Below, piece after piece: positions 3,545 to 29,734 of a stretch of 37,208 bases of DNA. Every line of letters starts with the position of its first letter. Within the stretch, counting starts at the first letter, position 1. Source of the stretch: Acidimicrobiales bacterium (GTDB lineage Bacteria > Actinomycetota > Acidimicrobiia > Acidimicrobiales > VFJN01); NCBI GenBank assembly GCA_046595835.1, contig JBKJSO010000084.1, forward strand, positions 1-37,208. The letters run 5' to 3'. Position numbers and translations under genes: made by a program. The notes below the pieces were generated by a model. It was not told the DNA's origin and did not search any database. It saw only the letters and a program-made list of their open reading frames with translations.

Positions 3545-3554
3545 GGGGCCATGC

Positions 3555-10520: not shown

Positions 10521-10572
10521 CTCGGCGACACTACTCAGGGGTCGGTACCGGCTCTGATCTCCGAGGCAGTGG

Positions 10573-12255
10573 TCAGCACCGCGTGTAGAGCTCGTACAAG
10601 CCGCGCTTCGGGTCGAAGCGGTCCACGCCGAACCGACGCACCAGGCAGAAGCTCCGCGCCAAGACCCGGTTGGGCTCGTCGGGTCCGAACAGCAACGAGT
10701 CGTTCGGCTCGTTCCAGTCGTCGCGGATCGTGGAGAGGATCACGACGTCGGCTCGGCGCAGCTCGTCGGCCAGCCCCGAGTCCGGGTCGTTGGCCACGCC
10801 GGGATCCATCTCGATGAAGCGGGTGCCGGGCACGAGGTGAGGGAGGAGGTAGTAGAGGAACGCCTCGCTGTAGGGGGTCTTGCGCAGATCGCCTGGCCCG
10901 ACGATCAAGCGGTCACCCGGGTGGGTGACCTGCTCGACCACCGGGAGCATCTCGTTGACAGCCGCCACCGCGTCGCTGCGCTTGTAGGGGAAGGTGCGCC
11001 CGTCGTGCTCGATGATGCCCTCGGTGCGACGATGCCCCAGCGACTGTGCGGTGGCCTCCGCATAGCTCCGGTAGGTGAAGAACGGCGCCACCACCAGGAG
11101 GAGAAGCGCCGGTAGGGCCACGACGGCCAGGCCCGCTCGCCAACCCGTCGGCCCAACTTCGGAGGGAGCGCGCCCCCGGGCGCGCCACAGCTCCACGACC
11201 GCGGCCGGGAGCACCGCGAAGGCCACGCAGCTCACCCATGCGAGGTGCGTGGAGTCGGGGCGCTGGACGGCCTGCGGGAACAGGCCGACTGCGAACGCGG
11301 CGATGGCGAGCAGGCGCCGCTCACCGGTGCGACGCCTTGCGATCACCCCGGCGATGATCAGCACCACGCCCACCACGAGCAGCGCGAAGAACCACAGCCA
11401 GAGCTGCCGCGGCCCGCTGGGCGCCGGCAAGGGCCACGGAGGCTGGTCGAGCGCGCCCGCGCCCTGGAGGAAGCCGTCGAAGTGCCCCGGGTGGGGAGGG
11501 ATGGGCAGCTGGCGCCCCCCGCGCAGGGCAAAGACGGGCTCGAGCACGAGACCGTTCAGTGACGCCCACGGTCCGGCCATGACCACCTGAACGAGGTAGG
11601 GGGAGCAGCCCACCGCGAACCCGAGTGCCAGTCGACGGCGAGCCGAGCGATCGAGGGCCAGCCACACCACGAGACCAGCCGCGCCGAGCGCGAGCACCAG
11701 GTCGAGTCGATAGAGGAGTGCGGCGCCGGCGAGGAGGCCAGCCAGCAGGGCCCGCCGCCCTCGACGGGACGAACCGCCCTCGGCCTCGACCGCCTCCGCG
11801 GCGCTGCACAGCGCCCACAGACCGAGGGCCACGCCGCCCACCCAGGCCATGGCGCTCAGTCCTGAGGGGGTGATCACCATCATGGCGCCGAGGCACGCGC
11901 CCCCGATGGCCACCCACGGTCCCCACGGCCGCAGCAGCCGGTACAGGCCGAAGGCGACGCCGACGTGCTGCAGGTAGCCGACGGCCCGCTCTGCGCCGAG
12001 GCTCACACCGAACACGGCGAACACACCGGCGAGCACCCAGAGGCTCCCGGGGCCGTAGAGGTGGAGGAAGTCGCGGTTGGGCACCTTTCCCGCGAGGACC
12101 ATCTCGGGGAAGGTGAGCATGAACCCCTCCTCCATCGGGGTTCCCTGCGTCAGCCAGAGGCCGCGAAGCGGCGGCAGGGTGGCGAGGAGCACGATGGACG
12201 GGCCCACCCAGGCGACGAGGCCGGTCGCGCGCGGAGGGGGCACCGGGCGCGTCAT
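10573..12255 (-). CDS. Polytopic membrane protein with C-terminal soluble domain; family not recognised; GT-C-like candidate
   Basis: Only the C-terminal part of the listed 888-aa ORF is credible, because the upstream part is antisense to the UbiA gene. Start is either ATG 12255 (MTRPVPPP) or ATG 12300 (MVATVARG). There are 10 or more hydrophobic segments, an acidic first-loop motif PMEEGFMLTFPE, and a soluble tail of about 140 aa. Confidence 0.6.
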   Translation of the reverse strand: MTRPVPPPRATGLVAWVGPSIVLLATLPPLRGLWLTQGTPMEEGFMLTFPEMVLAGKVPNRDFLHLYGPGSLWVLAGVFAVFGVSLGAERAVGYLQHVGVAFGLYRLLRPWGPWVAIGGACLGAMMVITPSGLSAMAWVGGVALGLWALCSAAEAVEAEGGSSRRGRRALLAGLLAGAALLYRLDLVLALGAAGLVVWLALDRSARRRLALGFAVGCSPYLVQVVMAGPWASLNGLVLEPVFALRGGRQLPIPPHPGHFDGFLQGAGALDQPPWPLPAPSGPRQLWLWFFALLVVGVVLIIAGVIARRRTGERRLLAIAAFAVGLFPQAVQRPDSTHLAWVSCVAFAVLPAAVVELWRARGRAPSEVGPTGWRAGLAVVALPALLLLVVAPFFTYRSYAEATAQSLGHRRTEGIIEHDGRTFPYKRSDAVAAVNEMLPVVEQVTHPGDRLIVGPGDLRKTPYSEAFLYYLLPHLVPGTRFIEMDPGVANDPDSGLADELRRADVVILSTIRDDWNEPNDSLLFGPDEPNRVLARSFCLVRRFGVDRFDPKRGLYELYTRC

Positions 12256-12294: not shown

Positions 12295-12300
12295 TACCAT
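12295..12300 (+). promoter_or_regulatory. -10-like hexamer TACCAT (TANNNT), exactly 6 nt upstream of the GTG of the UbiA gene; candidate leaderless promoter
   Basis: Sequence reads tggcTACCATcgcgccGTG and there is no Shine-Dalgarno. The hexamer also contains the alternative ATG (12300) of the divergent gene, so the call is ambiguous. Confidence 0.25.
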
Positions 12301-12306
12301 CGCGCC

Positions 12307-13260
12307 GTGACGGACGAGACCCGGGCCCCTGCTGTCGAGCGTCCGTCGCTCGGCAGCAGCGCTCCAGCCGGCGGGCTGCGTCCGCTGATCCGCCTCCTGC
12401 GCCCTCGCCAGTGGATCAAGAACGGGCTCGTGCTCGCGGCGCCGGCCGCGGCAGGCGTGCTCGACCAGGGTCACTACCTCGGTCGGGCCCTCATCGTGCT
12501 GGTGTCCTTCTGCCTCGCCGCCAGTGGCACCTACTGCCTGAACGACGCCGCGGATGTCGAGGCCGACCGCGCCCACCCCACCAAGCGGAACCGACCCGTG
12601 GCGGCCGGCGAGGTGAGCGTCGGCAGAGCCCGGGCCGTGGGCGGGGGGCTCCTCGTGCTCGGCGTCGGGCTCGGCATCGCGGTCGGGTCGTGGGAGGCCA
12701 GTGCCATCACCGCCGTCTACGTCGCCCTCACCACCGCCTACACGATCTGGCTCAAGCACGTGCCCGTGGTCGACATCGTCATGATCACGGCGTTCTTCGT
12801 CATCCGGGCCGTGGCGGGTGTGGTGGGCACCGACATCCCGCTGTCCGACTGGTACCTGATCGTGGCCTCGTTTGGCGCGCTGTTCATCGTGGCCGGCAAG
12901 CGAAGCATCGAGCTGCGCCTGGAGGATGCCGTGGGACACCGCGCCGCGCTGGCCGGGTACACGCCTGGCTTCCTGCTGTACGTCCGGTCGGTGGCCTCTG
13001 GCGTGGCGATGCTGGCCTACTGCCTGTGGGCATTCGAGAAGGCGCACCTCTCGGACAGCTCCGTGCCCTGGTTCCAGCTCTCGATCGTCCCGTTCGTCCT
13101 GATCATCCTGCGCTACGCGCTGGTCCTCGAGACCGAGGAGCGCCGAGGCCCCGAGGAGATCGTGCTCGAGGACCGCCAGCTGCAGGTGCTCGGGGTGCTG
13201 TGGGCGGCCGTGTTCGCCGCCGGTGTGTACCTCGGCCATGCCCCGCCGCTCGTCAGCTAG
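12307..13260 (+). CDS. UbiA-family decaprenyl-phosphate 5-phosphoribosyltransferase-like enzyme (Rv3806c type)
   Basis: I place the start at in-frame GTG 12307 (MTDETRAP...). RPRQWIKNGLVLAAP and NDAADVEADRAHPTKRNRPVAAG are the hallmark motifs of the Rv3806c subfamily. About 8 TM helices. Confidence 0.85.
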   Translation: MTDETRAPAVERPSLGSSAPAGGLRPLIRLLRPRQWIKNGLVLAAPAAAGVLDQGHYLGRALIVLVSFCLAASGTYCLNDAADVEADRAHPTKRNRPVAAGEVSVGRARAVGGGLLVLGVGLGIAVGSWEASAITAVYVALTTAYTIWLKHVPVVDIVMITAFFVIRAVAGVVGTDIPLSDWYLIVASFGALFIVAGKRSIELRLEDAVGHRAALAGYTPGFLLYVRSVASGVAMLAYCLWAFEKAHLSDSSVPWFQLSIVPFVLIILRYALVLETEERRGPEEIVLEDRQLQVLGVLWAAVFAAGVYLGHAPPLVS

Positions 13261-13369: not shown

Positions 13370-13675
13370 ATGCTGATGTTCGAGCGCCGCGTCGTGGCAG
13401 AGCTGACCACCTCCGCCGATCCTCAGCTCCGGGGGCAGGTCGAGCAGTGGGTCGACGGCACGCTGCAGGAGATGTCCGACGTGCTCCGCCTCGGCGTCGT
13501 CCTGGAGTCGCTGCTGCTCACCGCCTGGGCGGGCGTGCGCCGACCACCCGATCTCCACGGGCTCCTCGGCTGGCTCGACCGCAGCCCGATCTCGCTGCTG
13601 CGCTCCTACCCCCGTCTCTTTCGGTCGCTGGTGCTGTTCGGCGAGCTCGAGCTGGCCGACGCGGACCGCCGATGA
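13370..13675 (+). CDS. Small hypothetical protein (101 aa) translationally coupled to the GMC oxidoreductase
   Basis: Very high GC3 across the ORF. Its stop overlaps the GMC start (ATGA at 13672-13675). One hydrophobic stretch (LRLGVVLESLLLTAWAGV). No motif recognised. Confidence 0.6.
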   Translation: MLMFERRVVAELTTSADPQLRGQVEQWVDGTLQEMSDVLRLGVVLESLLLTAWAGVRRPPDLHGLLGWLDRSPISLLRSYPRLFRSLVLFGELELADADRR

Positions 13676-15096
13676 CCTCCCTCCACACAGAGGTGCTCGT
13701 GATCGGATCGGGAGCCGGCGGGGCCACCACCGCGATGGTGCTCGCAGAGGCGGGCCGGAGCGTGCTCGTGGTGGAGGAGGGCCCCGAGATCGAGCCCGGG
13801 TCACTCACCCCGTTCAGCCTGCGGGAGATGGAGCAGGCCTATCGCCACCACGGTTCGTCGGCCGCCCTCGGCAGCCCGCCGATCGCCTACGCCGAAGGGC
13901 GCTGCGTAGGAGGCAGCACCGAGGTGAACAGCGGGCTCTGGCATCGCCTGCCGGGCGCCCTGGCCGAGGAGTGGCGGATCCGCTTCGGCCTCGACGACTT
14001 CACCCCGGAGGCGCTCGACCGCTACGCCGCCCGCATCGAGGCCCTGGTGCCCGTGCACCCCGTGCCCGGCGCGCCGCCCCGCTCGTCGGCCATCCTCGAG
14101 GAGGGAGCGACCAAGCTCGGCTGGCGGGCCGTCGAGTTCCCCCGCGCCTTCACCTACGACGTCAACGGTCGGGGCACGAAGCAGACGATGAGCCGCACGC
14201 TGCTGCCGCGCGCACGCGCTGCCGGCGCCACCGTGCTGGCCGACACGGCGGTGCGGAAGCTTCGCATCCAGGGCGACCGTGTCTTGGGAGCGACGTGCTC
14301 CCGGCGCCGAGCCGACGGAACGTCGGAGCAGATCCACATCCGGGCCGACCACGTGGTGGTGTGCGGGGGCGCCGTGCAGAGCCCCGCCCTCCTGCAGCGC
14401 AGCGGTGTGCGGCGGGGGATCGGCCACGGGCTCAAGATGCACCCCACGATCAAGATCGCGGCGCGCTTTCCGGGCCCGGTCGACCACGACGACGTGCCGA
14501 TGCACCGCATCACGGAGTTCTCGCCGCACCTCGCCATTGGCGGTTCGGCCAGCCGTCGTGGGCACGTGGCCCTCGCCTTGGCGGACAGCGGCGCTGACAT
14601 CGCCGACGCGCTCGCCGACTGGGAGCACGTGTTCGTGTACTACGCGGCGATCCGCAGTGACCTCGGCGGCCGCGTCCTCGCCGTGCCCGGGATGCGAGCC
14701 CCGCTCGTCACCTACCGCCTCACCGACTCCGATCTCAGCCGCCTGGCCCGGGGGCTGGTGCACCTGGGCGAAGCGCTGCTGGCGGCCGGAGCCACCGAGC
14801 TGTACCCGTCGATCGAAGGCGGCCAGGTCGTGCGCCGCCCCGAGGAGCTGGTGGGCTGGTGGGATGCTGTCGACCGCTCCCGCACCAACCTGATGACCGT
14901 GCACCTCACCTCGAGCATCCGCATGAGCAGCGATCGCTCCAAAGCGGGCACCGACGGCTTCGGGCGCGTGTGGGGCGTCCCCAACCTCCGGGTGAACGAC
15001 GCCTCGCTCCTTGCCGACGCGCCGGGCGTCAACCCGCAGGCCGCCATCATGACCATCGCCCTGCGCAACGCCGAGCACCTCCTCGCCACCACCTGA
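13672..15096 (+). CDS. GMC-family FAD-dependent oxidoreductase
   Basis: I place the start at ATG 13672 (MTSLHTEVLVIGSGAGGATTA). It has the GxGxxG FAD fold, EEG, CVGGSTEVNSG and VVVCGGAVQSPALLQRSG. The C-terminal catalytic region has LMTVHLTSS and NDASLLADAPGVNPQAAIMTIALRNAE. Confidence 0.9.
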   Translation: MTSLHTEVLVIGSGAGGATTAMVLAEAGRSVLVVEEGPEIEPGSLTPFSLREMEQAYRHHGSSAALGSPPIAYAEGRCVGGSTEVNSGLWHRLPGALAEEWRIRFGLDDFTPEALDRYAARIEALVPVHPVPGAPPRSSAILEEGATKLGWRAVEFPRAFTYDVNGRGTKQTMSRTLLPRARAAGATVLADTAVRKLRIQGDRVLGATCSRRRADGTSEQIHIRADHVVVCGGAVQSPALLQRSGVRRGIGHGLKMHPTIKIAARFPGPVDHDDVPMHRITEFSPHLAIGGSASRRGHVALALADSGADIADALADWEHVFVYYAAIRSDLGGRVLAVPGMRAPLVTYRLTDSDLSRLARGLVHLGEALLAAGATELYPSIEGGQVVRRPEELVGWWDAVDRSRTNLMTVHLTSSIRMSSDRSKAGTDGFGRVWGVPNLRVNDASLLADAPGVNPQAAIMTIALRNAEHLLATT

Positions 15097-15109: not shown

Positions 15110-16150
15110 ATGACCGACCTGAACGACCAACCGCGCCCGCGCACCATCGTCATCACGGGCGCCGCAGGCTGGCTGGGCCAGAACCTCGTGCGCGAGGTGG
15201 CGCCCGAGCGCGACGCCGTGCGCTGCCTCGTGCAGAGCCACGAGGAGGCCACGCTGCTCGCCCTCATCTCCCCGGCCGTCCAGCCGGTGGTGGGCGACGT
15301 GCGCGACCCGACGGCCCTCGATGCGCTCTTCGAGGGAGCAACCGGCGCCACCGTCGTGCACGCGGCCGCGATCATCCACCCCCTGCGCCGCGTGCAGGAG
15401 CTCCACGACGTGAACGTGGGCGGCACCCAGCTGGTGCTCGATCGGGCCCGTCGGGCCGGCGCCGGCCGGGTGGTGCACATCTCGTCGAACTCTCCCTTCG
15501 GTGCCAACCCCACGCCGACGCACCGGTTCACGGAGGACTCGCCCCTCAACCCGTACCTCGGTTACGGGCGGTCCAAGGCCGACGCCGAAGGGCTCGTGGC
15601 CACGGCCCAGGAGCGGGGCGACCTGCAGACGGTGGTGCTGCGGCCACCGTGGTTCTACGGACCCTTCCAGCCGGCCCGGCAGACGCAGTGGTTTCGGGCC
15701 GTGCGCCGCGGCCGGTTCCCGCTGGTGGGCGACGGCACGAACCGCCGCTCCATGGTGTTCACGGGCAACCTGGTGCACGGCGTGCTCCGAGCCGAGGTGG
15801 CGGCCCAGGCGGTGGGCAACGCCTACTGGATCGCCGATGGCGACCCGCTCGACATGCGCTCGATCCTGATGACCGTGCGGGAGGCGCTCATCGCCGAGGG
15901 GCTCCCGGTCTCGGGCGGGCAACCGCGCATGCCGCGCCTGGCCGGCGTGGTCGCCGAGCACCTCGACACCGTCCTGCAGGGGCGGGGCCGCTACGTGCAG
16001 GCCCTGCACGTCCTCGGGGAGCTGAAGGACACGATCGCCTGCGACATCTCGCGGGCCCGCGCGGAGATCGGCTACGACCCGCCTACCGATCTGCTCGCCG
16101 GCATGCGGGCCAGCATCCGCTGGTGCCTCGAGCGGGGGCAGGACCTGTGA
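15110..16150 (+). CDS. Extended SDR, NAD-dependent epimerase/dehydratase family (copy 1)
   Basis: ITGAAGWLGQNLV Rossmann motif, HISSNS, and catalytic YGRSKADAE (YxxxK). 346 aa. Confidence 0.9.
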   Translation: MTDLNDQPRPRTIVITGAAGWLGQNLVREVAPERDAVRCLVQSHEEATLLALISPAVQPVVGDVRDPTALDALFEGATGATVVHAAAIIHPLRRVQELHDVNVGGTQLVLDRARRAGAGRVVHISSNSPFGANPTPTHRFTEDSPLNPYLGYGRSKADAEGLVATAQERGDLQTVVLRPPWFYGPFQPARQTQWFRAVRRGRFPLVGDGTNRRSMVFTGNLVHGVLRAEVAAQAVGNAYWIADGDPLDMRSILMTVREALIAEGLPVSGGQPRMPRLAGVVAEHLDTVLQGRGRYVQALHVLGELKDTIACDISRARAEIGYDPPTDLLAGMRASIRWCLERGQDL

Positions 16151-17181
16151 GCCGGACGGTTCTCATCACCGGTGGCAGCGGGTACTTCGGTTCGATCCTG
16201 GTCGATCGGGCCCTGGCCCTCGGTGATCGCGTTCGGATCCTCGACGTCAACCCGTCCGACCCCCGCCCGGGCGCCTCCGTGGAAGCGATCGTGGGCGACG
16301 TGCGCGACGACGCCGTCGTGCGCGATGCCAGCCGCGGGGTCGACGTGGTGCTCCACAACGTCGCACAGGTGCCCCTCGCCAAGGACCGCGACCTCTTCTG
16401 GTCGGTGAACGTGGTGGGTACCGCCAACGTCTTGCTGGCCGCACGCGAGGCAGGCGTCGGCAAGGTGGTGCACACCTCGTCGAGCGCGATCTTCGGCATC
16501 CCGGAGCACAACCCTGTGGTAGAGGAGACGCCCCCCCACCCGCTCGAGGCCTACGGGCGGGCCAAGCTCGAAGCGGAGGTGCTGTGCCGGGAGGCGCTGG
16601 CCACGGGGCTCGACGTGTCGATCGTTCGTCCCCGCACGATCCTCGGCCACGGGCGGCTGGGCATCATGGCCATCCTGTTCGAGTTCGTGGCCGAGGGTGC
16701 TCCGGTCTACGTGCTCGACGGGGGCCACAACCGCTACCAGTTCGTGCACGCCGAAGACCTCGCGGATGCCTGCTTGCTGGCTGGCGCTCGCGTCGGTGCG
16801 TCGACCTACAACATCGGCACCACCGACTTCGGCACGATGCGCGAGACGTTGCAGGCGCTGGTCGACCATGCGGGCACCGGGTCCCGTGTCCGGTCGCTGC
16901 CGTCGGCGCCGGCGAGGGTGGGGATGCAGGCGGTATCGAAGCTCGGGCAGGCACCGTTCGCGCCCTACCACTGGCTCCTCTACGGCGAGTCGCTGTGGTT
17001 CGACACGACCCGGGCGCGCGAGGAGCTGGGCTGGGAGCCGACCCACTCGAACGCCTCGATGGTCATCGAGTCGTATGAGTGGTTCCTGGCGCATCGATCC
17101 GAGCTGGGCGCCCAGGGCAAGTCGCACCACCAGTCGCCGGCGCGCCTCGGGCTCCTCAAGCTCCTGAAGCGCCTGCCCTAG
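16147..17181 (+). CDS. Extended SDR, NAD-dependent epimerase/dehydratase family (copy 2)
   Basis: GTG start at 16147 overlaps the stop of copy 1 (GTGA). ITGGSGYFGSILV, HTSSSA, catalytic YGRAKLEAE, and a basic amphipathic C-terminus LGLLKLLKRLP. Confidence 0.9.
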   Translation: MSRTVLITGGSGYFGSILVDRALALGDRVRILDVNPSDPRPGASVEAIVGDVRDDAVVRDASRGVDVVLHNVAQVPLAKDRDLFWSVNVVGTANVLLAAREAGVGKVVHTSSSAIFGIPEHNPVVEETPPHPLEAYGRAKLEAEVLCREALATGLDVSIVRPRTILGHGRLGIMAILFEFVAEGAPVYVLDGGHNRYQFVHAEDLADACLLAGARVGASTYNIGTTDFGTMRETLQALVDHAGTGSRVRSLPSAPARVGMQAVSKLGQAPFAPYHWLLYGESLWFDTTRAREELGWEPTHSNASMVIESYEWFLAHRSELGAQGKSHHQSPARLGLLKLLKRLP

Positions 17182-17191
17182 GCTGGCCTCC

Positions 17192-19084
17192 GTGGTGGTC
17201 TCCTCGGTGGCTGAGACGCCGCGCCCCGACCCGGTCGACGCCGACGCCGACCTGTCCGCGGCGCAGCGCGGGCCCCGCTGGACCGTGGGGGCGTGCCTTG
17301 CTGCCCTCTGCGTGCCGCTCGTGGTAGCGCTGGCCGGGTTCCGGCGCCACACATGGGCCCCCGTGCTCGACCTCGCCATGACGGAGCTGCGCGTGCGCGA
17401 CGTCGGAGGTCGGCACACACCGCTCATCGGGCTCCCGGGCCGGATCGGCACGATCGGGCAGCAGGGGAGCCATCCCGGGCCGGTGAGCTTCTACGCGCTG
17501 GCGCCCACGTACCGCGCCCTGGGCGCCACCGCATGGGCGCTGCAGGTCGCCACCTTCGTGATCCACGCCGTCGCCATGGGGACGGCCCTGCTCATCGCCC
17601 GTCGCCGAGGCGGGGCTCGCCTCGTGCTCGGCGTGGCCGTGCTCCTCGCCGTGCTCACCGCGGGCTACGGCGGGGGCGCGCTCACCGAGCCGTGGAACCC
17701 CTATCTGCCGGTCATGTGGTGGGTGGTCGTGCTCCTGGCGGTGTGGTCGGTGCTCTGCGGCGACGTGGCCATGCTCCCGGTCGCCGTGGTGGCGGCCTCG
17801 TTCTGCGCGCAGACGCACGTGCCCTATCTCGGGCTGGCGCTGGGCATGGGCGGGCTCGCCACCGCGGCAGTGGCGGCGCGGTGGTGGCGTCATCGCGAGG
17901 AACGGCGTGTGGTCCTTCGGTGGAGCCTCCTAGCGCTCGGCCTCGGCGTGCTGCTGTGGCTGCCCCCCTCGATCGACCAGGTGCGACACGATCCGGGCAA
18001 CTTCCGTCAGCTGATCGACCACTTCTCGGATCCCTCCGAGCAACCCAAGGGGCTGGCCTACGGCGTACAGGAAGGGGTGCGCCACTTCGACATCGCCCAC
18101 CTGGTCCGTGCCGATGTGATCGATCCGGGACGCCTTGTCACGAGAGCCCCCGGGAACCGACCCACGTCGTCGCGCGGCATCGTGCTCGTCGGCATCTGGG
18201 CCCTCGCCGCGGTCGTCGCCACCCGGCGCCGCCGGGCATCCCTCATGCGTCTGCACCTCGTGGTCGGGGCGGGCCTGGTGCTCATGGTGCTCGCCATCAG
18301 CCGCATCTTCGGGACGGTCTGGTACTACCTGACGCTGTGGGGCTGGGCTATTGGCCTCCTGGCGGCCCTCGCGGTCGTCTGGACGGCACTCGACCTGCTG
18401 GACGAGCGCTGGCCGCCCGCCCGGCGGACGGCGCTGGCCACGGTCGGCACCGCCGCGCTGGCTGCCCTCGGGATGGCCATCGTGATCAGGTTCTCCGTGG
18501 ACGCGTGGAACAGCCCCCACGCCGACGCCTCGGTGGCGGCTGAGCTGGCGGCGGTGGTCGACGACGTCGCCGCCGGGCTCGACGGCGGCGCGGGGGTGGC
18601 GACGGGTCACACGGGTCGGTACCTCATCGCGTGGGACGACACGTTCCACATCGGCTCACAGGGCTTCGGTCTGCTCAGCGAGCTCGAGCGACGTGGCTTC
18701 GACGTTGGCGTCGACTACGGGAAGCGGGTGCCGGCCACGAGCCACCGCGTGCTCGACGCTCACCTGGCGACCGCAAGGATCGAGCTTGCGACCGGCACGC
18801 ACGTGGCTCGTTGGCGAGATGTCACCGGTGCCGTCGAGGTCGCCACCTTCGACCCTCGCGACGGGTCCGCTCGAGCCGAACAGGCTCGGCTTCGGCGGGA
18901 GGTGATCGGCACCCTTCGGCGCCTCGGCCTCGACGAGCTCGTGCACGAGGTCGACGACAACCTCTTCGGCGCCGCGATCGACGAGCGAGTCCCGGAGGCG
19001 ACGCAGCAGCAGATGGGACGCATGCTCGAGCTGGGCACGCCGATCGCGGTCTTCGTGCTCCCCCCCGACGCCGTCGATCCATGA
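17192..19084 (+). CDS. Large polytopic membrane protein, unrecognised family, tandem paralog A (630 aa)
   Basis: About 10 or more TM segments plus a soluble C-terminal domain of about 190 aa. It shares the blocks DLAMTELRVRDVGGRHTPLIGL, SHPGPxSFY, LTEPWNPxLP, CAQTHVPYL and HDPGN with the next gene. Confidence 0.75.
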   Translation: MVVSSVAETPRPDPVDADADLSAAQRGPRWTVGACLAALCVPLVVALAGFRRHTWAPVLDLAMTELRVRDVGGRHTPLIGLPGRIGTIGQQGSHPGPVSFYALAPTYRALGATAWALQVATFVIHAVAMGTALLIARRRGGARLVLGVAVLLAVLTAGYGGGALTEPWNPYLPVMWWVVVLLAVWSVLCGDVAMLPVAVVAASFCAQTHVPYLGLALGMGGLATAAVAARWWRHREERRVVLRWSLLALGLGVLLWLPPSIDQVRHDPGNFRQLIDHFSDPSEQPKGLAYGVQEGVRHFDIAHLVRADVIDPGRLVTRAPGNRPTSSRGIVLVGIWALAAVVATRRRRASLMRLHLVVGAGLVLMVLAISRIFGTVWYYLTLWGWAIGLLAALAVVWTALDLLDERWPPARRTALATVGTAALAALGMAIVIRFSVDAWNSPHADASVAAELAAVVDDVAAGLDGGAGVATGHTGRYLIAWDDTFHIGSQGFGLLSELERRGFDVGVDYGKRVPATSHRVLDAHLATARIELATGTHVARWRDVTGAVEVATFDPRDGSARAEQARLRREVIGTLRRLGLDELVHEVDDNLFGAAIDERVPEATQQQMGRMLELGTPIAVFVLPPDAVDP

Positions 19085-20904
19085 CGGTGTCGCGCTGGAT
19101 GCCTCGTTGGCTGCTCCCCATGGTCTCAGCCGCGGTGCTGGCCCCGCTCGCGGTGGCCGTCGTGGTGCAGCGCAACGCCCACTGGCATCCCGTCTACGAC
19201 CTCGCCATGACGGAGATGCGGGTACGAGACGTCGGCGGGCGTCACACGCCCCTCATCGGCCTCCAGGGGCGCATCGGACCCACGGGGAGCCACCCGGGTC
19301 CGCTCTCGTTCTACCTGTTGGCCCCGGTGTACCGACTGCTCGGGTCGTCGGCCTACGCCCTGCAGGTGTCCACCGCCGCCTTCCACGGCCTGGCCGCGAT
19401 GACCGCCCTGCTCATCGCCCGACGGCGCGGCGATGGCCGCGTGCTCATCGGCGTCGGGATGATCCTGCTCCTGCTCATGCAGGGCTACGGGCTGGGCCCG
19501 CTCACCGAGCCGTGGAACCCGCATCTGCCTCTGCTGTGGTTCGTGGCGTTCCTGCTGGCCGCCTGGGCCGTGCTGGAGGGGGATCTGGTGATGCTGCTCC
19601 CCGCCGTGGCGGCGGCGTCCCTCTGCGCGCAGACCCATGTGCCGTACCTGGCCGTCACCGTCGGCCTGGGCGGCGGCCTGGCCGTGGTGGCGACGGCCTA
19701 CGCGTGGAGAGCCCGCTCCCGTCCCGGACGGCCGGGCTGGCGCTGGCTGGTGGGTGCGGCGGCACTCGGTGTGGTGCTCTGGATCCCGCCGCTGATCGAC
19801 GAGGTCGTCCACGACCCCGGCAACCTCAGTCAGATCGTCGATCACCTCGGCAGCCCCACCGACGCTCCCATCGGCGTCCGGGCCGCGGCCAAGATCATCG
19901 TTGAACGCCTCGATGCCTGGCAGCTCGTCGTGGGTGAGACCCGGCACCCGGGCACCTATGTCCGCACCCTCAGCGGGCCGGGGCCCACCCGGGATCGGGG
20001 CTTCGTGACCCTGGCCGCGTGGCTTGGCTGCGTTGTGGCGTCCGTGGTGCTCCGTCACCGTCGGCTCCTCGCCCTGCACCTGCTCGTGGGCAGCGCGTGG
20101 GCTGTCGGCATCGCAGCCGTCTCGCGGATCTACGGCGTGCCCTGGCCCTACCTGACGCTGTGGGGGTTCGGGATCGGGGCCCTCATGGCGCTGTCGATCG
20201 CGGCCACCGCCGTAGCGCTGCTGCTGCGGTGGTGGCCCCGCCTGGCCGTCGTGTCCGGCGCTCGCCCGTGGAGCGTGGCCGGTGTCGTGGTGCTGGGCGC
20301 GCTGTCGGCAAGGATGCTGGTCATCGCCCCTGACGCCACCACCGACACACCCGACCAGACGGAGCAGCTCGGTCGGTTGCTGCCCGACACGCTGGCCGCC
20401 CTCGACCGCGGCGTCGGGGCGGCGACTGGTCACGACGGTCGCTACTACGTGTACTGGGACGATGCCACGAACGGCGGCTCGGAGGGGATCGGACTCGTGA
20501 ACGAGCTCGTCCGGCACGGCTACGACGTCGGTGTCGATGCCCGGAACGGGCTGCAGATCTCGCCGTACCGCGTCCGTCGGCCAGCCGACTCGACCGCCCG
20601 GATCGTCGTCGCGAGCGGGGGGTGGATCGAACGGTGGGCCGCGGAGCCCGACGCCACGATGGTGGCCAGCGACGATCCCCGAAGCCCCGCCGAGCGGCAG
20701 GAGTTCGAGCACGTGCGGGCTGAGGCGGTCGCCGACCTGCGCGCCATGGGGCGCGACGACCTGGTCAACCGGATCGACACCGATCTGTTCGATGTGGCGC
20801 TGAACGGGGGAGTCCCGCCGGGCGTCGGGCTGCTCCTCGGGCGCATGATCGGCATCGGCGTGCCCGCCGCCGTGTTCGTCCTGCCGAAGGCGGCGGCCGC
20901 GTGA
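19081..20904 (+). CDS. Large polytopic membrane protein, unrecognised family, tandem paralog B (607 aa)
   Basis: ATG 19081 overlaps the stop of paralog A (ATGA). It has the same conserved blocks as paralog A. The listed longer ORF (from 18631) runs through the paralog A coding region and was trimmed. Confidence 0.75.
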   Translation: MTVSRWMPRWLLPMVSAAVLAPLAVAVVVQRNAHWHPVYDLAMTEMRVRDVGGRHTPLIGLQGRIGPTGSHPGPLSFYLLAPVYRLLGSSAYALQVSTAAFHGLAAMTALLIARRRGDGRVLIGVGMILLLLMQGYGLGPLTEPWNPHLPLLWFVAFLLAAWAVLEGDLVMLLPAVAAASLCAQTHVPYLAVTVGLGGGLAVVATAYAWRARSRPGRPGWRWLVGAAALGVVLWIPPLIDEVVHDPGNLSQIVDHLGSPTDAPIGVRAAAKIIVERLDAWQLVVGETRHPGTYVRTLSGPGPTRDRGFVTLAAWLGCVVASVVLRHRRLLALHLLVGSAWAVGIAAVSRIYGVPWPYLTLWGFGIGALMALSIAATAVALLLRWWPRLAVVSGARPWSVAGVVVLGALSARMLVIAPDATTDTPDQTEQLGRLLPDTLAALDRGVGAATGHDGRYYVYWDDATNGGSEGIGLVNELVRHGYDVGVDARNGLQISPYRVRRPADSTARIVVASGGWIERWAAEPDATMVASDDPRSPAERQEFEHVRAEAVADLRAMGRDDLVNRIDTDLFDVALNGGVPPGVGLLLGRMIGIGVPAAVFVLPKAAAA

Positions 20905-22271
20905 CAGCCCACCGATCGAACGCGGCGACCCCGGCGAGGTCGGCGCGCGTGGAGCTGACCGCCGGACAGCGGCGCTACCTGATCGCCACGGTCGCGACCG
21001 CGTTCGGCCTGCGGATGGCCTGGGCCCTGTACGCCCGGGGAGCCGCTCCCGTCGAGTGGTTCCACTCCGGCGACCAGTACTCCTACTACCACTACGGCAG
21101 CGAGATGGCCCGGGGGCGTGGGTACATCAGCTACTTCACCGGCAGCGCCAGCGCGTACTACCCGATCGGGTACCCGGGGCTGCTGGCGGCGCTCTACTTC
21201 GTGGTGCTGCACACCCCCATCCCGGACCACCTCATGATGGCGACCGCCCTGCTCCACGTCGTGGCCGGCACGGCCTCCGTGTGGTTCGTGTTCCTGATCG
21301 GTCGGAGCATGTCCAGCGTCCGCACCGGCCTGGTGGCGGCCACCCTCCTCGCGGTGTTCCCCAACGTCATCTACCAGGTGTCCACGGTGCAGCTCGAGAC
21401 CGTGTTCATCGCGGCGGTCTCGGGTGCGCTTGCCGTCATCGTCACCCACGACTGGGTCGCCGGCCCGCCCAGCACGCGCCGCCTGCTGGCCTTCGGGGTG
21501 GCGCTGGGTGCCGCCATCCTGGTGCGGCCCTTTGCCGCCGTGCTCCTGGTGGGTCTGGCTGGCGCGCTGCTCGTCACCCGCGTCGGGTGGCGGCGGACCG
21601 CGCTCGGCGTGGCGCTGCCCCTTGCTGTCGTCATTGCGATGTCGGTGCCCTGGACCATCCGCAACGCCGTCGAGATGCACGCGTTCATCCCGTCGTCCAC
21701 GAACATGGGCGACACGCTCTGCCTCGACCGCAACCTCGACGCGCAGGGCGGCTTCCGCTTCGCGGATCACGACGGGTGCGTCGACCCGGGGCTGCCCGAG
21801 GTGGAGCGCAATGCCGGCAACACGAAGAAGGCGATCCACTTCGTGATCGATCACCCCGGCCGGGAGCTGCTCCAGATCGGGCGGCGGGGCCGGTTGATGT
21901 TCATCGACGACCATGACGGCATCGAGGCGGTCCAGACCCTCGGCGGCGGCCTGGTGCTCTCCCCCCGGGCGGCCAGCGACGCGTCGAGCGTCGGCGACCG
22001 GTACTTCTACGGCATCGTGGGCCTGGCGGTGCTCGGCCTGCTGAGCTTCTTCCGACGAGACCGCCGGCCGCAGCGGCTGCTTGTGCTGTCGGGGCTCGTC
22101 GGGCTGCTCGTGATCCCGCTGCTGCTCTGGGGCAACCCGCGGTTCCACCTGCCGCTCGTGCCGTTCATCGCGCTGTCAGCGGCGTCGCCGATCGTCGCCG
22201 TCTGGGATCGGCTCCGACCCGTCCGGGTCACCGCGGATCCCGCAACCCCGGTGGAATGCGTGTCGGCCTGA
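20901..22271 (+). CDS. GT-C membrane glycosyltransferase, ArnT/PMT-like (PMT_2 / GT39-GT83 type)
   Basis: GTG 20901 overlaps the upstream stop (GTGA). The first-loop motif SGDQYSYYHYGSEMARGRGY resembles the acidic/aromatic loop of ArnT/PMT-like enzymes. About 11 TM helices. Confidence 0.7.
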   Translation: MTAHRSNAATPARSARVELTAGQRRYLIATVATAFGLRMAWALYARGAAPVEWFHSGDQYSYYHYGSEMARGRGYISYFTGSASAYYPIGYPGLLAALYFVVLHTPIPDHLMMATALLHVVAGTASVWFVFLIGRSMSSVRTGLVAATLLAVFPNVIYQVSTVQLETVFIAAVSGALAVIVTHDWVAGPPSTRRLLAFGVALGAAILVRPFAAVLLVGLAGALLVTRVGWRRTALGVALPLAVVIAMSVPWTIRNAVEMHAFIPSSTNMGDTLCLDRNLDAQGGFRFADHDGCVDPGLPEVERNAGNTKKAIHFVIDHPGRELLQIGRRGRLMFIDDHDGIEAVQTLGGGLVLSPRAASDASSVGDRYFYGIVGLAVLGLLSFFRRDRRPQRLLVLSGLVGLLVIPLLLWGNPRFHLPLVPFIALSAASPIVAVWDRLRPVRVTADPATPVECVSA

Positions 22272-23840: not shown

Positions 23841-23925
23841 TGCGGCGCAGGGCTTTCGACGAGGTGCGGCGGGCGCGGAGCAAGCAGCAGTCTAGGAAGC
23901 CGTCCCGCGGATCCACCGCATCGCT

Positions 23926-23932
23926 GAGGGAG
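23926..23932 (+). promoter_or_regulatory. Shine-Dalgarno-like GAGGGAG, 5 nt upstream of the GTG start of AftD-like paralog 2
   Basis: Sequence reads gctGAGGGAGcgccgGTG. It lies in the 97-bp divergent spacer 23841-23937. Confidence 0.4.
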
Positions 23933-23937
23933 CGCCG

Positions 23938-26900
23938 GTGTGGCCGCTACCGTGGGCCGTCGTGCGCCTCCAGAGCAAGACGGAGCTGGCAGGCCTGGCG
24001 GCGCTGGCGTACGGCCCCTTCCTGCTCTCCTCGCCGGGGAAGGTGAGCGTCGACAGCAAGCAGGACCTCTACCTGGACCCGGGTCGGTTCCTCGGCCGGG
24101 TGCTGGATCTCTGGGACCCGCACGTGGGTGCGGGAACCGTGCCTCACCAGAACCTGGGGTACCTCTTCCCCACGGGCCCGTGGTTCTGGCTGCTCGAACG
24201 CCTCGGCGCACCGGACTGGGTGGCTCAGCGCCTGTGGCTGGGCACGATCTCGCTGTTCGCCGCGCTCGGAGCCCGGTGGCTGTTTCAGCAGCTCGGCACC
24301 GGACGCGTCGGCGCTCTCGCCGGCGCGCTCGTGTACCTGCTCACGCCCTACCAGCTGGCCTTCACGGCTCGGACGTCGGTGCTGCTGCTGCCCTGGGCTG
24401 CCCTTCCCTGGTTGGTCGGCTGCACGATGCGCTCGACGCGGACCCGCGACTGGCGCGCGCCGTGCCTGCTCGCGCTTGTGCTGCTCGGCGCCGGCGGGAT
24501 CAACGCGTCGTCGCTGCTGCTCGTTGCCGTAGGCCCCGCCCTGTGGCTCGTCATGGAGGTCGGCCGATCTCGTCGCGCCGCGGGCCAGACCCTCGCGGCG
24601 GCCGGCCGCATCGCCCTCGTGGGTGCGGGGATCTCGCTGTGGTGGGCGGTTGGTCTGCGGGTGCAGGGAACCCATGGCCTCCCGGTGCTCCAGCTCACCG
24701 AGAACGTGCGCACGGTGGCGGATGCCTCGACGCCCAGCGACATCCTGCGCGGCCTCGGCAACTGGTTCTTCTACGGGCACGACCGGCGCGGCTACTCCGT
24801 CGACCAGGCCGCCGCCTACGCAGGCGATAGCGACCTCGTCGTGGTGCTCAGCTACTTGGTGCCGATGGTCGCGCTCGCGGCGGCCTTCCTACTTCGCTGG
24901 GCCCACCGCGCCTACTTCGCGCTGCTCGTGGTCGTGGGAACGATCGTGGGGGTCGGGTCGTGGCCCTACGACCACCCCAGCCCGTACGGCTCGCTCTGGA
25001 AGGCCTTCACCACCAACACGTCGTTGGGGTTGGCGTTCCGCAACAGCCCGCGGGTCGTACCGATCGTCGTGCTCGGGTTCGCGGGGCTGGTGGCCGGCGC
25101 GGTCGGGGCGCTGCCGGCGCCGACCTGGCGACGCCTGGCGGGTGGTGCCACTGCGGTCCTGGCCGGGGCGGCGCTGCTCCCCGTCTGGCAGCACGGCTAC
25201 CTCACCGACGGCATGCAGCGCCCCGAGCGCATCCCGCAGTACTGGCTCGACGCGACCCGAGCCATGGACGCCGGCGACCACGGCACCCGTGTGCTCGAGG
25301 TGCCGGGGTCGAGCTTCGCGGCCTACCGGTGGGGCACCACCGTCGACCCGATCACGCCCGGTCTGATCACGCGGCCGTACCTGGCCCGCGAGGTGCTTCC
25401 CTCGGGCACCGCGGCGAGCGCCAACCTCCTCGAGGCGCTCGACCGGCGCATGCAGGCTGGCGTCTTCGAGGGCGGCTCCCTCGCGCCGCTCGCCCGGCTC
25501 CTCGGTGTCGGCACCATCGCGCTGCGGGCCGACCTCGACAGCTCCGGTCGATTCGACACGCCCACCCCGGGGCCGCTGTGGACGTCGCTGGTCCGCGCCG
25601 AGGGTCTCGGACCTCCTCGGCGCTTCGGTCCCCCTGGTGGTGACGGCACCGACCCCTCTCTGCCCTCGGTGGCCCTCTTCGACGTCGAGCAGTCGCTGCG
25701 CATCGTGCGACTGGCTCCGGTGCACAGGCCCGTGGTGCTGGCGGGCGACGGCGATGGCCTCGTGGACGCCGCCGCCGCTGGCATCATCGATGGGTCGGCG
25801 CTGGTGCTGGAGTCAGCAGGGCTGGACGCAGGCTCCCTGGCGGCGGCGCTCGATGCGGACGCCCATCTCGTGGTCACCGACTCCAACCGGCGACGGGTGC
25901 AGACGTGGTTCTACGGGCTGCGCGACACGCGGGGGGAGACCGAGCGCGCTGGTGCCACCGCTCCAGACCCCACTGGCTACGACTTCCGTCTCGACCTGTT
26001 CCCGGGTTCCAGCGACGACAGCCGCACGCTTGTGGAGCAGGTCGGCGGGCGCGTGGAGGCCAGCAGCGCCGGCGGCCCGGAGCGTCCCGAGGATCGCGCC
26101 GGCCATGTCATCGACGGCGACCCCAGCACGGCGTGGCGAGTCGGCGGCTCGGACCCCCGGGGCCAGGCCATCGTGATCGATCCCACCCACCTGGTGCGCA
26201 CCGTCGAGATCCGCCTCGTCCAGCCCACGGTGCCTCCCGGTGGACGCTCCCTGGCACGCGTCCGCATCGAGGGCATCGCCCCCGCCCCTGTCGACGTCGA
26301 TCTCGGGCCGGCCTCCCTCACCGCGGCGGGCCAGGCCGTTCCGGTCGCGTCCGGCGCTGTCGGCCGGTTGCGCATCGAGGTGCTCGAGACGAGCCCGCCA
26401 GCGGGCGGGCCACCCGATGCCACGCCGGTGGGCCTGGCGGAGGTGCGCGTCGGCGCCCTGCGCATCACCGAGACCGTCCGTCCACCAGTGGACCTCCTCG
26501 GGCGCGCTGGGGCTGACCTGGCCGGCCACAGCCTCGACATCGTGCTCACCCGGCTCCGCCGTGGCACCGTCGCCGCGGATCGCCACGACGAGGAGGCACT
26601 TCTCGACCGCAGCCTCGATCTCCCCATCGGCCGCACCTTCGCCCTCACGGGCACGGCCCGGCCCGGCGCTGGTGTCAACCAGGTGTCGATCGATTCCTTG
26701 AGCTGCCGCGCCGACCTGCTGGCCCTCGACGGGGCACCCCTACCCGTGCGCCTTCAGGTCGTCGGGGACGCGTTCGGTCTCACGGAGTGCGCACCCGTGT
26801 CGCTCGCTCCTGGGCGCCACCGGCTCACCTCCGTGCCCGGCAGTGAGAGCGGGATCGATGTCGATCGGGTCGTGCTCGCATCGGCGGCCGACGGTGCGCC

Positions 26901-27612
26901 CGCCAGGGCCGCTCCACGAGGCGACGGAGGGGCGGCCGGTTCGACGGTCGTGGTTCGTCACAATCGCGCTGCGCACCTCGACCTCGACGTCACCACTGAT
27001 GGCCGCCCGTTCTGGCTGGTGCTCGGTCAGAGCCACGACGATGGGTGGTCGCCATCCGTCGACGGGGCGACCGTGGGCGCGCTCCAGCTCGTTGACGGGT
27101 ACGCCAACGGGTGGCTCGTGACCCCCGACGGCCCCGGCACGCTGTCGATCGCCCTGCGGTGGGGCCCGCAGCGCCTGCTCTGGATCGGGCTGACGACCAG
27201 CGCCCTCAGCCTCCTCGGCTGCCTCGTGGTCCTCTGGCGTGGGCGCGGCAGGGCCCTGCCGCCCGACCCCCCGCTCGTCGCCTGTCCCACGCTCCTACTC
27301 GCCACACCGAGCGCCGCACCGCGCCCGCCTGCTGCGATCGCTGGGCTGCTGGCGGCGGGCGGTCTCGCCCTACTGGTGGCGCCCCCGGTCGTCGCGGCGG
27401 CCGCGACCATCCTGCTCGGAGCAGCCCGGCTGATTCGGCGGGGCCCGGTGCTCCTCGCCGCCGCCGTGCCCGCGGTGCTGCTCGTCAGCCGCGTCGCCCA
27501 CCGCCCGTCGCTGGCGTGGGTGGTGGTCATCCTCCTCGCGGCCGATCTGCAGCGCCCACCCCTGGCGGGCGCACGGGGACCCCAATCCTCGGGCGGGGTC
27601 ACGGCATCGTGA
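23938..27612 (+). CDS. AftD-like alpha-(1->3)-arabinofuranosyltransferase family protein (DUF3367-type giant GT-C), paralog 2, 1224 aa
   Basis: DSKQDLYLDP...WDPHVGAGTVPHQNLGYLFP...GAPDWVAQRLWLG aligns with paralog 1. It has one DGDxxTxW motif (HVIDGDPSTAWRVG) and C-terminal TM helices. Confidence 0.85.
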   Translation: MWPLPWAVVRLQSKTELAGLAALAYGPFLLSSPGKVSVDSKQDLYLDPGRFLGRVLDLWDPHVGAGTVPHQNLGYLFPTGPWFWLLERLGAPDWVAQRLWLGTISLFAALGARWLFQQLGTGRVGALAGALVYLLTPYQLAFTARTSVLLLPWAALPWLVGCTMRSTRTRDWRAPCLLALVLLGAGGINASSLLLVAVGPALWLVMEVGRSRRAAGQTLAAAGRIALVGAGISLWWAVGLRVQGTHGLPVLQLTENVRTVADASTPSDILRGLGNWFFYGHDRRGYSVDQAAAYAGDSDLVVVLSYLVPMVALAAAFLLRWAHRAYFALLVVVGTIVGVGSWPYDHPSPYGSLWKAFTTNTSLGLAFRNSPRVVPIVVLGFAGLVAGAVGALPAPTWRRLAGGATAVLAGAALLPVWQHGYLTDGMQRPERIPQYWLDATRAMDAGDHGTRVLEVPGSSFAAYRWGTTVDPITPGLITRPYLAREVLPSGTAASANLLEALDRRMQAGVFEGGSLAPLARLLGVGTIALRADLDSSGRFDTPTPGPLWTSLVRAEGLGPPRRFGPPGGDGTDPSLPSVALFDVEQSLRIVRLAPVHRPVVLAGDGDGLVDAAAAGIIDGSALVLESAGLDAGSLAAALDADAHLVVTDSNRRRVQTWFYGLRDTRGETERAGATAPDPTGYDFRLDLFPGSSDDSRTLVEQVGGRVEASSAGGPERPEDRAGHVIDGDPSTAWRVGGSDPRGQAIVIDPTHLVRTVEIRLVQPTVPPGGRSLARVRIEGIAPAPVDVDLGPASLTAAGQAVPVASGAVGRLRIEVLETSPPAGGPPDATPVGLAEVRVGALRITETVRPPVDLLGRAGADLAGHSLDIVLTRLRRGTVAADRHDEEALLDRSLDLPIGRTFALTGTARPGAGVNQVSIDSLSCRADLLALDGAPLPVRLQVVGDAFGLTECAPVSLAPGRHRLTSVPGSESGIDVDRVVLASAADGAPARAAPRGDGGAAGSTVVVRHNRAAHLDLDVTTDGRPFWLVLGQSHDDGWSPSVDGATVGALQLVDGYANGWLVTPDGPGTLSIALRWGPQRLLWIGLTTSALSLLGCLVVLWRGRGRALPPDPPLVACPTLLLATPSAAPRPPAAIAGLLAAGGLALLVAPPVVAAAATILLGAARLIRRGPVLLAAAVPAVLLVSRVAHRPSLAWVVVILLAADLQRPPLAGARGPQSSGGVTAS

Positions 27613-29503: not shown

Positions 29504-29542
29504 GGCGCGCGAACCTACCCGTGGCGCGCGATCCTGGGTCGC

Positions 29543-29722
29543 ATGCCGTTCACCTGCCCTCGCTGCGCCCAGCCCGTCGAGGCTCGTTTCTACGGTCCCT
29601 GCACGGATTGCCGCGGCCAGCTCCGACGCACGCTCGGCAGCGAGGCCCGGCACGTGGAGCGCGGCGCGTTCGAGCCCGCCATGCACGTCACCCCGAACGC
29701 GGTCGCCCTCAAAGACGACTGA
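29543..29722 (+). CDS. Small Cys4 zinc-ribbon-like protein (59 aa)
   Basis: MPFTCPRCAQPVEARFYGPCTDCRG contains a CPxC...CxxC pair. GC3 is mostly high. I chose the internal ATG 29543 because the longer listed ORF would overlap the divergent GT-C gene. Confidence 0.45.
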   Translation: MPFTCPRCAQPVEARFYGPCTDCRGQLRRTLGSEARHVERGAFEPAMHVTPNAVALKDD

Positions 29723-29734
29723 CCCGCAAGCCGA

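Follow-up and report, generated by a model that had tools for sequence, protein, structure and literature searches.

In this study, we analysed a 37,208-nucleotide (nt) stretch of DNA from an Acidimicrobiales bacterium (GenBank assembly GCA_046595835.1, contig JBKJSO010000084.1, positions 1 to 37,208 of the forward strand; hereafter the window; G+C content 72%), and we propose that two tandem genes in it, named here A and B, belong to a new family of glycosyltransferases of the C fold class (GT-C), which would take a sugar (probably a pentofuranose) from a polyprenyl-phosphate carrier and add it to a glycan of the envelope. We put the probability of this reading at about 0.7. The outer glycan layers of cells are the work of GT-C enzymes, and Acidimicrobiia are abundant, poorly cultured actinobacteria of soil, freshwater and sea, whose envelope chemistry is almost unknown. 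The proposed family would extend a known fold class rather than introduce a new principle, and its distinguishing features would be a new sequence family, an unmatched extracytoplasmic domain and a class-specific conserved locus. The gene pair consists of the following features.

17192..19084, + strand: gene A, GTG start, 630 amino acids (aa), polytopic membrane protein of the A-type ortholog group
19081..20904, + strand: gene B, ATG start, 607 aa, paralog of A with a predicted GT-C fold, 11 transmembrane helices and a C-terminal soluble domain
19081..19084, + strand: 4-nt ATGA overlap of the A stop and the B start; the junction reads gatccATGAcg

First, the predicted structure of B makes it very likely that both proteins have the GT-C fold. 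Using an alignment of 53 relatives, which also served for the Pfam scan of relatives, the invariance counts and the topology statistics given below, AlphaFold2 produced a model of B with a mean predicted local distance difference test score (pLDDT) of 91.2 and a predicted TM-score (pTM) of 0.91. When this model was compared with the PDB by Foldseek, the first 29 matches were all GT-C enzymes (ArnT, ALG9, PglB, ALG12, STT3, AftA, EmbA/B/C, Pmt4, AftD, DPY19 and AftB), with a Foldseek probability of 1.0 in the first 15 and at least 0.85 in all 29. The best match was ArnT (5ezm; E 1.7e-6, TM-score 0.47 normalised to the query and 0.52 normalised to the target, 12-14% sequence identity). Eleven long helices of the model were read as membrane-spanning, which falls within the roughly 7-13 transmembrane helices of the GT-C superfamily, and the hydropathy of both A and B agreed with this. 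An earlier reading of the sequence alone had suggested a GT-C-type transferase and had named a comparison of the predicted structure with GT-C structures as the check; with GT-C enzymes filling the top 29 places, the comparison came out in favour of that idea. The many transmembrane helices and the missing family annotation could also be explained if A and B were transporters or permeases that lie in a glycan locus by chance. However, major facilitator superfamily and other transporter structures matched the B model with a probability below 0.25 and TM-scores of about 0.1, against a probability of 1.0 for GT-C enzymes, and the conserved residues of A and B are found in extracytoplasmic loops and not within the transmembrane helices. 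The transporter explanation was rejected on the fold of the B model and is extremely improbable.

Second, the invariant residues of the family are concentrated where a GT-C active site would be expected. The two motifs in the loop after the first transmembrane helix (TM1) are as follows.

17369..17434, + strand: gene A loop-1 motif DLAMTELRVRDVGGRHTPLIGL, with D60, E65, R67, R69 and D70, the equivalents of which are invariant in the 53 relatives; predicted outside
19198..19263, + strand: gene B loop-1 motif DLAMTEMRVRDVGGRHTPLIGL, with D40, T44, E45, R47, R49 and D50 in invariant columns; a short helix directly after TM1

In the B model, TM1 corresponds to the helix of residues 11-33, the loop after it carries short helices at 39-50 and 75-86, TM7 and TM8 are connected by a helical loop of about 70 residues, and the soluble domain begins at residue 420. 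The content of lysine plus arginine per residue was 0.29-0.46 in the predicted cytoplasmic loops and 0-0.08 in the outward loops, and because of this positive-inside signal the N-terminus is predicted to be inside, and the DLAMTE..RVRD loop after TM1 and the C-terminal domain to be outside. The sequence-only reading had asked whether these two elements face outward, and the statistics place both of them there; the acidic motif that it had pointed out after the first transmembrane helix (D40, E45 and D50 of B) proved invariant in the 53 sequences. In the membrane domain, 50 of the 60 invariant columns fall in five outward loops, which make up 39% of the region, and two are cytoplasmic (R115 and D168). 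The outward-loop blocks are DLAMTE and SHPGP in loop 1, LTEPWNP in loop 2, CAQTHVPYL in loop 3 and LWxPPxID..DPGN in loop 4, and LIARRRG is the sole block of the earlier list that maps to a cytoplasmic loop. At the level of single positions, the invariant outward motifs can be written as D-x3-T-E-x-R-x-R-D (loop 1), HPGP, EPWNP, QTHxPY, WxPP..D..PGN and R..G..W.Y. After adding the paralogs of about 30% identity, R47, D50, H186 and N248 (B numbering) are still invariant and D40 is nearly so, and both A and B keep all of them. We infer from this pattern a GT-C active site at the outer side of the membrane, in which the loop-1 motif residues are candidates for the catalytic acid and for substrate binding. 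An Asp just after TM1 is the proposed catalytic residue in solved GT-C enzymes and in GT136 (PMC11127046).

A and B are likely to be extracytoplasmic glycosyltransferases using a lipid-phosphate sugar. It is also conceivable that they are GT-C-like in fold and serve as a scaffold or chaperone for other GT-C enzymes, as a flippase of lipid-linked sugars, or as a polymerase or ligase of diphosphate-linked glycans. The activity of A and B is predicted only, WaaL and RodA do appear far down the fold list (ranks 40-41, probability 0.44-0.51, TM-scores of about 0.2), and the family scans identified no flippase for a lipid-linked donor, MATE included, in the window. However, the strong fold matches of the B model are all GT-C transferases using monophosphate-lipid sugars, and the outward loops of every paralog group keep a dense set of invariant polar and charged residues, as would be expected of an active site and not of a scaffold. 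Roles of this kind are considered quite improbable.

The C-terminal domains are the least familiar part of the two proteins.

18506..19081, + strand: gene A C-terminal soluble domain, about 190 aa, after the 11th transmembrane helix, aligning with the B domain, predicted extracytoplasmic
20338..20901, + strand: gene B C-terminal alpha/beta domain, residues 420-607, predicted extracytoplasmic

When residues 420-607 of B were modelled alone, the pLDDT was 92.4 and the domain showed 5 strands and 8 helices. Foldseek against the PDB gave no significant match for it (best E 0.11, probability below 0.25, TM-score below 0.3), and the periplasmic domains of ArnT and PglB were not matched at this sensitivity. 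The methyltransferase and thiolase matches obtained in this search were dismissed (E>0.1, TM-score <0.3). Judging from its position, the domain could, as a guess, be an acceptor-binding module.

Third, the sequences of A and B belong to no named family. In the Pfam scan, A gave no match above threshold, and the only near match of B was to PF10131 (PTPS_related), at 15 bits (E 0.0089) and short of the gathering cutoff of 26.4 bits; A had no match to this model. Weak PF10131 matches were also obtained in 18 of the 53 relatives (approximately residues 73-253, best E 1.8e-5), and nothing else was recurrent. PF10131 is listed among the families of the Pfam GT-C clan (CL0111; PMC7801869), and its signal may be a faint sequence link of the A/B family to GT-C enzymes, which falls short of membership. 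No NCBIfam model reached threshold with A or B, the matches being at noise level. The matches of A to a SLATT domain (E 0.0085) and to NepR (E 0.23) in NCBIfam, and of B to Phage_gene29 in Pfam (E 0.057), were isolated, far below cutoff and absent from relatives, and were set aside as chance. The Pfam profiles of PMT, PMT_2 and ArnT (GT83, GT39; PF02366, PF13231) matched neither A nor B at E<=1 and none of the 53 relatives at E<=0.1, and those of Emb and AftA-D (PF04602, PF12250, PF11847) matched neither A, B nor the relatives. Neither a single protein nor the 53-sequence profile found a meaningful match among PDB sequences (best E about 1). By hhalign, the family profiles showed no relationship to the PMT_2-like and AftD-like families that occur in the same loci (probability 13% or less overall; 2-3% against 28 PMT_2-like orthologs and 12% or less against the AftD-like family of related loci).

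The family is large and was named in no case. More than 1,400 relatives were found in a search of 5.8 billion proteins, and all the named ones were labelled ‘hypothetical protein’ and came from Acidimicrobiales, Microthrixaceae, Ilumatobacteraceae or related metagenome-assembled genomes. At E<=1e-3, a profile search of 1.84 billion representatives of 50%-identity clusters returned 5,834 clusters, of which 1,632 passed E<=1e-30. When the paralogs of about 30% identity were built into the profile, another large protein search gave nothing past ‘hypothetical proteins’ of the Acidimicrobiia type. A and B thus appear to represent an unnamed family that, as far as sampled, is confined to Acidimicrobiia, and the description of it as unrecognised in the sequence-only reading holds across Pfam, NCBIfam and the PDB.

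The relationship between the two genes was examined at the protein and DNA levels. Both sequences match exactly the gene products called on the source NCBI contig, and the ATGA overlap is consistent with translational coupling. BLASTP aligned A and B over 601 residues with 46% identity, 60% positives and 4 gaps (E 2e-153). Blocks common to both are DLAMTE(L/M)RVRDVGGRHTPLIGL, SHPGP(V/L)SFY, LIARRRG, LTEPWNP(Y/H)LP and CAQTHVPYL, together with LW(L/I)PP(S/L)ID, HDPGN, GRY(L/Y)..WDD and R(R/H)G(F/Y)DVGVD. Between 17369-17434 and 19198-19263, 9 differences are synonymous and 1 is non-synonymous, which corresponds by the Nei-Gojobori method to proportions of synonymous (pS) and non-synonymous (pN) differences of 0.50 and 0.02. 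For the whole genes, pS is 0.55, pN is 0.39 and nucleotide identity is 57%, and different codons are used at 135 of the 275 residues that are identical in A and B. From these values, the pair is read as an old duplication under purifying selection, and a recent repeat is ruled out. The sequence-only reading had described a tandem pair joined by an ATGA overlap, a set of conserved blocks, a bias to synonymous change from an old duplication and a soluble C-terminal domain of about 190 aa. The open reading frames (ORFs) and the junction agree with the first, all the quoted blocks were recovered in the alignment, the substitution counts bear out the third, and B residues 420-607 model as a compact alpha/beta domain.

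Fourth, the family is kept in a recurrent genomic setting. A scan of 185,579 species genomes gave 435 stretches encoding relatives, of which the best 80 loci were kept. Where the titles of these loci go below the phylum, they name Acidimicrobiia lineages, with one exception, a metagenome-assembled genome labelled uncultured Bifidobacterium; the remaining titles give only Actinomycetota, Actinomycetes, Actinobacteria or uncultured bacterium. The sequence-only reading had suggested looking for homologs outside glycan loci, and in the 80 loci the gene lies almost always among genes of glycan synthesis. By tblastn with the neighbouring proteins of the window, the partners that recur in nearly all loci, in varying orders, are a 560-aa protein, a GT2, a GT4, UbiA, a small ORF, a GMC oxidoreductase, both short-chain dehydrogenases/reductases (SDRs), PMT_2, an amine-oxidase-like gene and AftD-like genes, and the UbiA-GMC-SDR arrangement is conserved across Acidimicrobiia loci.

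Orthologs of A are present in all 80 loci, and those of B only in the closest relatives of the window (L002-L008 and L019). In a neighbour-joining tree, the B-type sequences are placed near the base of the A clade and not beside the A genes of their own genomes, as would fit an old duplication. In most of the other loci there is a divergent paralog, called here C-type (about 30% identity, hhalign probability 99% against the family profile), often immediately after A. At least two family members were found in 32 of the 36 loci with a full view of 10 kb on both sides, a directly adjacent same-strand pair in 33 of the 80 loci, and the exact 4-nt overlap between the A-type gene and the next paralog in 16 of the 80. 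Pairing of the A-type gene with a second family member is the rule. The paired members might act one after the other, each on its own linkage, or they might form a hetero-oligomer by analogy with EmbA-EmbB or Pmt1-Pmt2. A and B probably differ in the linkage they form or in the acceptor they use; an Emb-like or Pmt-like hetero-oligomer is possible, and an A-B heterodimer in particular is regarded as unlikely. Some related genomes have three or four members in a single locus: in L001 (13352-15100 and 15090-16787), an A-type gene and two C-type paralogs are separated by a gene fusing a GT2 with a methyltransferase, and L054 contains four family members. One locus, L013, is on the chromosome of a cultured organism, Actinospongicola halichondriae Hal317, and, alongside UbiA, GMC and both SDRs, it encodes a C-type paralog and an A-type protein (48% identity); this strain could serve for experiments.

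The sugar donor can be approached through the genes that surround the pair. A and B are part of a co-directional run in the order UbiA, small ORF, GMC, SDR, SDR, A, B, PMT_2, in which the genes other than A and B are the following.

12300..13260 (start approximate), + strand: UbiA-family polyprenyl-phosphate phosphoribosyltransferase, first gene of the same-strand run, Pfam UbiA
13370..13675, + strand: small ORF of about 100 aa, G+C content at third codon positions (GC3) 0.90, ATGA-coupled to the GMC gene, in >25 related loci
13672..15096, + strand: GMC-family FAD oxidoreductase, Pfam GMC_oxred_N and GMC_oxred_C, adjoining SDR genes in related loci
15110..16150, + strand: extended SDR (NAD-dependent epimerase/dehydratase), copy 1, Pfam Epimerase E 3.9e-33
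16147..17181, + strand: extended SDR, copy 2, Pfam Epimerase E 1.4e-39, GTGA overlap with copy 1, ending 10 nt before A
20901..22271, + strand: PMT_2/ArnT-like GT-C gene, Pfam PMT_2 35.7 bits (cutoff 26.1), GTGA-coupled to B, last in the run

ATGA or GTGA overlaps join small ORF and GMC, SDR1 and SDR2, A and B, and B and PMT_2; the GMC/SDR1 and SDR2/A gaps are 10-13 nt, and about 110 nt separate the end of UbiA from the small ORF. The UbiA protein scored 352.6 bits against the NCBIfam equivalog NF008978 ‘decaprenyl-phosphate phosphoribosyltransferase’ (cutoff 207). A pentofuranose donor is favoured because A and B share this compact same-strand run with a UbiA of the decaprenyl-phosphate phosphoribosyltransferase type, GMC and SDRs, and we consider it slightly short of an even chance as the actual donor. 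The GMC enzyme and two SDRs that follow UbiA may form an alternative redox route tailoring a lipid-linked pentofuranose, and no genes of the DprE1/DprE2 type were recognised in the window. The small ORF, which matched nothing in Pfam or NCBIfam, may be a partner subunit of the GMC flavoenzyme. A classical SDR at 964-1803 was considered as DprE2 and dropped, as it gave generic FabG-like matches only. In the literature, our searches for Acidimicrobiia with arabinofuranosyltransferase, and for DPPR synthase with GMC oxidoreductase, found nothing.

The same locus holds further genes of glycan synthesis, including a GT4 gene and the following.

9783..10739, - strand: GT2 glycosyltransferase, Pfam Glycos_transf_2, resembling polyprenyl-phosphate hexose synthases
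10576..12255, - strand: 560-aa membrane protein, divergent from UbiA, weak PMT_2 match (E 0.012), in most related loci
4243..8658 (stop-to-stop), - strand: AftD-like GT-C with carbohydrate-binding modules (CBMs), Pfam GT-C_AftD E 1.8e-88, CBM_AftD and F5_F8_type_C
23896..27612 (stop-to-stop), + strand: second AftD-like GT-C, Pfam GT-C_AftD E 6.8e-82

AftD is known from mycolate actinobacteria, and here two AftD-like genes are found in an Acidimicrobiia genome. The GT2 has sub-threshold NCBIfam matches to AglJ, dolichyl-phosphate hexose transferase, PpgS and ArnC-type models, and is a possible source of a second lipid-linked donor. A competing explanation is that A and B are GT-C enzymes using a polyprenyl-phosphate hexose made by this GT2 (for example mannose, galactose or glucose), and that the AftD-like enzymes use the pentofuranose. 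The AftD-like genes, whose mycobacterial relatives use decaprenyl-phospho-arabinose, would then be the consumers of a pentofuranose. The hexose explanation also draws on the GT2 likeness itself, on about 18 related loci in which the GT2 ortholog is immediately followed by a same-strand A-type gene, and on the whole-cell sugars of the cultured carrier, which include mannose and galactose and no arabinose. On the other side, in the window and in about 27 related loci the A-type gene comes straight after UbiA/GMC/SDR genes, with the same orientation and minimal spacing, and the PMT_2-like GT-C is an equally good candidate for the user of a hexose donor. We regard the hexose donor as a minority possibility.

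Several observations weigh against the proposal that A and B are GT-C enzymes transferring a pentofuranose. The TM-scores of the B model to solved GT-C enzymes are moderate (0.3-0.5), the putative catalytic role of D40 or D50 is argued from position and conservation, and the C-terminal domain of B matches no solved CBM at E<=0.1 in the Foldseek search of the PDB. A GT2 resembling polyprenyl-phosphate hexose synthases is in the same locus, and at least three other GT-C genes of the locus could use a pentofuranose donor. In many related loci, the A-type gene comes after a GT2, a GT4 or the 560-aa gene and not after the SDRs, so gene order singles out no donor. A single copy was found in 4 of the 36 fully viewed loci, which argues against an obligate heterodimer. 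In addition, the published chemotaxonomy of A. halichondriae, the one cultured carrier with such data, reports rhamnose, ribose, mannose and galactose as whole-cell sugars and no arabinose or xylose.

Comparison with known systems gives the proposed function a possible framework. The closest single structure is ArnT (GT83; PDB 5ezm/5f15), the undecaprenyl-phosphate-L-Ara4N:lipid A transferase, the sugar donor of which is polyprenyl-monophosphate-linked. As predicted for A and B, it is a polytopic GT-C protein in which loop 1, following TM1, and a C-terminal domain are extracytoplasmic. In contrast, sequence identity in the structural alignment is only 12-14%, A and B have no PMT, PMT_2 or ArnT profile match, and the C-terminal domain of B alone has no match in ArnT. 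At the level of the whole locus, the closest system appears, by analogy, to be the GT136/undecaprenyl-phospho-ribofuranose (undP-Ribf) pathway together with the mycobacterial arabinan machinery.

GT136 was founded on Citrobacter youngae ORF12 (Kelly et al. 2024) for its lack of similarity to existing glycosyltransferase families, and in its pathway a polyprenyl-phosphoribose synthase, optional epimerases and an 11-transmembrane GT-C (GT136) add pentofuranoses outside the membrane (PMC11127046). Both this system and the A/B locus have a UbiA-type polyprenyl-phosphoribose synthase, one or more SDRs and a GT-C with 11 transmembrane helices. By the published description (PMC11127046), GT136 is also like A/B in having an Asp close behind TM1, a small helical domain at that place and an additional extracytoplasmic domain at the C-terminus. 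The C-terminal domain of GT136 is a beta-rich CBM, whereas that of the A/B family is alpha/beta (5 strands and 8 helices) with no PDB match. Unlike the GT136 system, the synthase of the A/B locus has no fused phosphatase domain by Pfam, a GMC flavoenzyme and two SDRs take the place of the single SDR or DprE1/E2, and no MATE flippase turned up in the window. The substrates of GT136 are O-antigen side chains of Gram-negative bacteria. The likeness is thus a resemblance of architecture and offers no evidence of family membership.

On the mycobacterial side, EmbA/B/C, AftA, AftB and AftD (GT53, GT85, GT89 and others) share the GT-C fold with the B model (Foldseek E 5e-4 to 4e-2), and the decaprenyl-phospho-arabinose pathway (UbiA Rv3806c, DprE1/DprE2) starts with the same kind of phosphoribosyltransferase as the A/B locus. 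Paralogous GT-C enzymes encoded in one locus are common to both, and the tandem Emb paralogs form the EmbA-EmbB heterodimer (PDB 7bvf). However, A and B have no Arabinose_trans or GT-C_AftD match, are much smaller at about 610-630 aa and contain no recognisable CBM, and the A/B locus is unlike the arabinan system in that no DprE1/DprE2-type genes were recognised and arabinose was not detected in the cultured carrier.

By analogy with solved GT-C enzymes, a mechanism for the proposed transferases can be outlined. A polyprenyl-phosphate-linked sugar would be made at the cytoplasmic face and then flipped outward, and its binding site would be a groove that loop 1 forms with the membrane domain. 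The acceptor hydroxyl would be activated by an acidic residue of the loop-1 motif, either of D40 and D50 in B and of D60 and D70 in A. Transfer of the sugar would then extend an envelope glycan, which the C-terminal domain might hold. The favoured donor would be polyprenyl-phospho-ribofuranose or a derivative of it made by the GMC flavoenzyme and the two SDRs. A still broader picture can be drawn, in which Acidimicrobiia have a class-wide, as yet undescribed envelope polysaccharide whose pentofuranose, carried on polyprenyl phosphate, is tailored by GMC and SDRs replacing DprE1/DprE2 and which is assembled outside the membrane by co-translated GT-C pairs (A with B or A with C-type), EmbA-EmbB-like and with a new acceptor-binding domain; this we hold to be rather doubtful.

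A definition of this family would be useful in several respects. First, the family, with its roughly 1,600 clusters at E<=1e-30, is large yet labelled just ‘hypothetical protein’, and it would add a glycosyltransferase family to the classification, as GT136 did in 2024. Second, it would serve as a genomic marker of a likely pentofuranose-containing envelope polymer outside the mycolate actinobacteria. Third, its locus would expose a possible route for tailoring lipid-linked pentoses other than DprE1/DprE2.

The remaining genes of interest in the window are listed below.

2894-3886, - strand: NT5C-type 5'-nucleotidase, near the AftD-like gene
22272-23840, - strand: FAD amine-oxidase-like gene, 743 bits to NCBIfam NF005548, an equivalog named ‘hypothetical protein’
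27602-29734, - strand: 711-aa membrane ORF, no Pfam family, weak match to the NCBIfam LA_3751/LA_3752 putative glycosyltransferase model (E 5.9e-5)

No PAP2 phosphatase was seen in the window, and the NT5C-type 5'-nucleotidase can be put forward, as a speculation from its position and family, as a candidate phosphatase for polyprenyl-phospho-ribose-5-phosphate. The 560-aa protein is probably a further, unclassified GT-C; the high GC3 of its ORF region extends to about 12285, and its hhalign probability against the A/B family is 61%, confined to the C-terminal soluble domain. For the 711-aa ORF, as for the PMT_2-like gene, hhalign showed no relationship to the A/B family, and the ORF is kept in the closest related loci. 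The amine-oxidase-like gene adjoins GT-C genes in many related loci.

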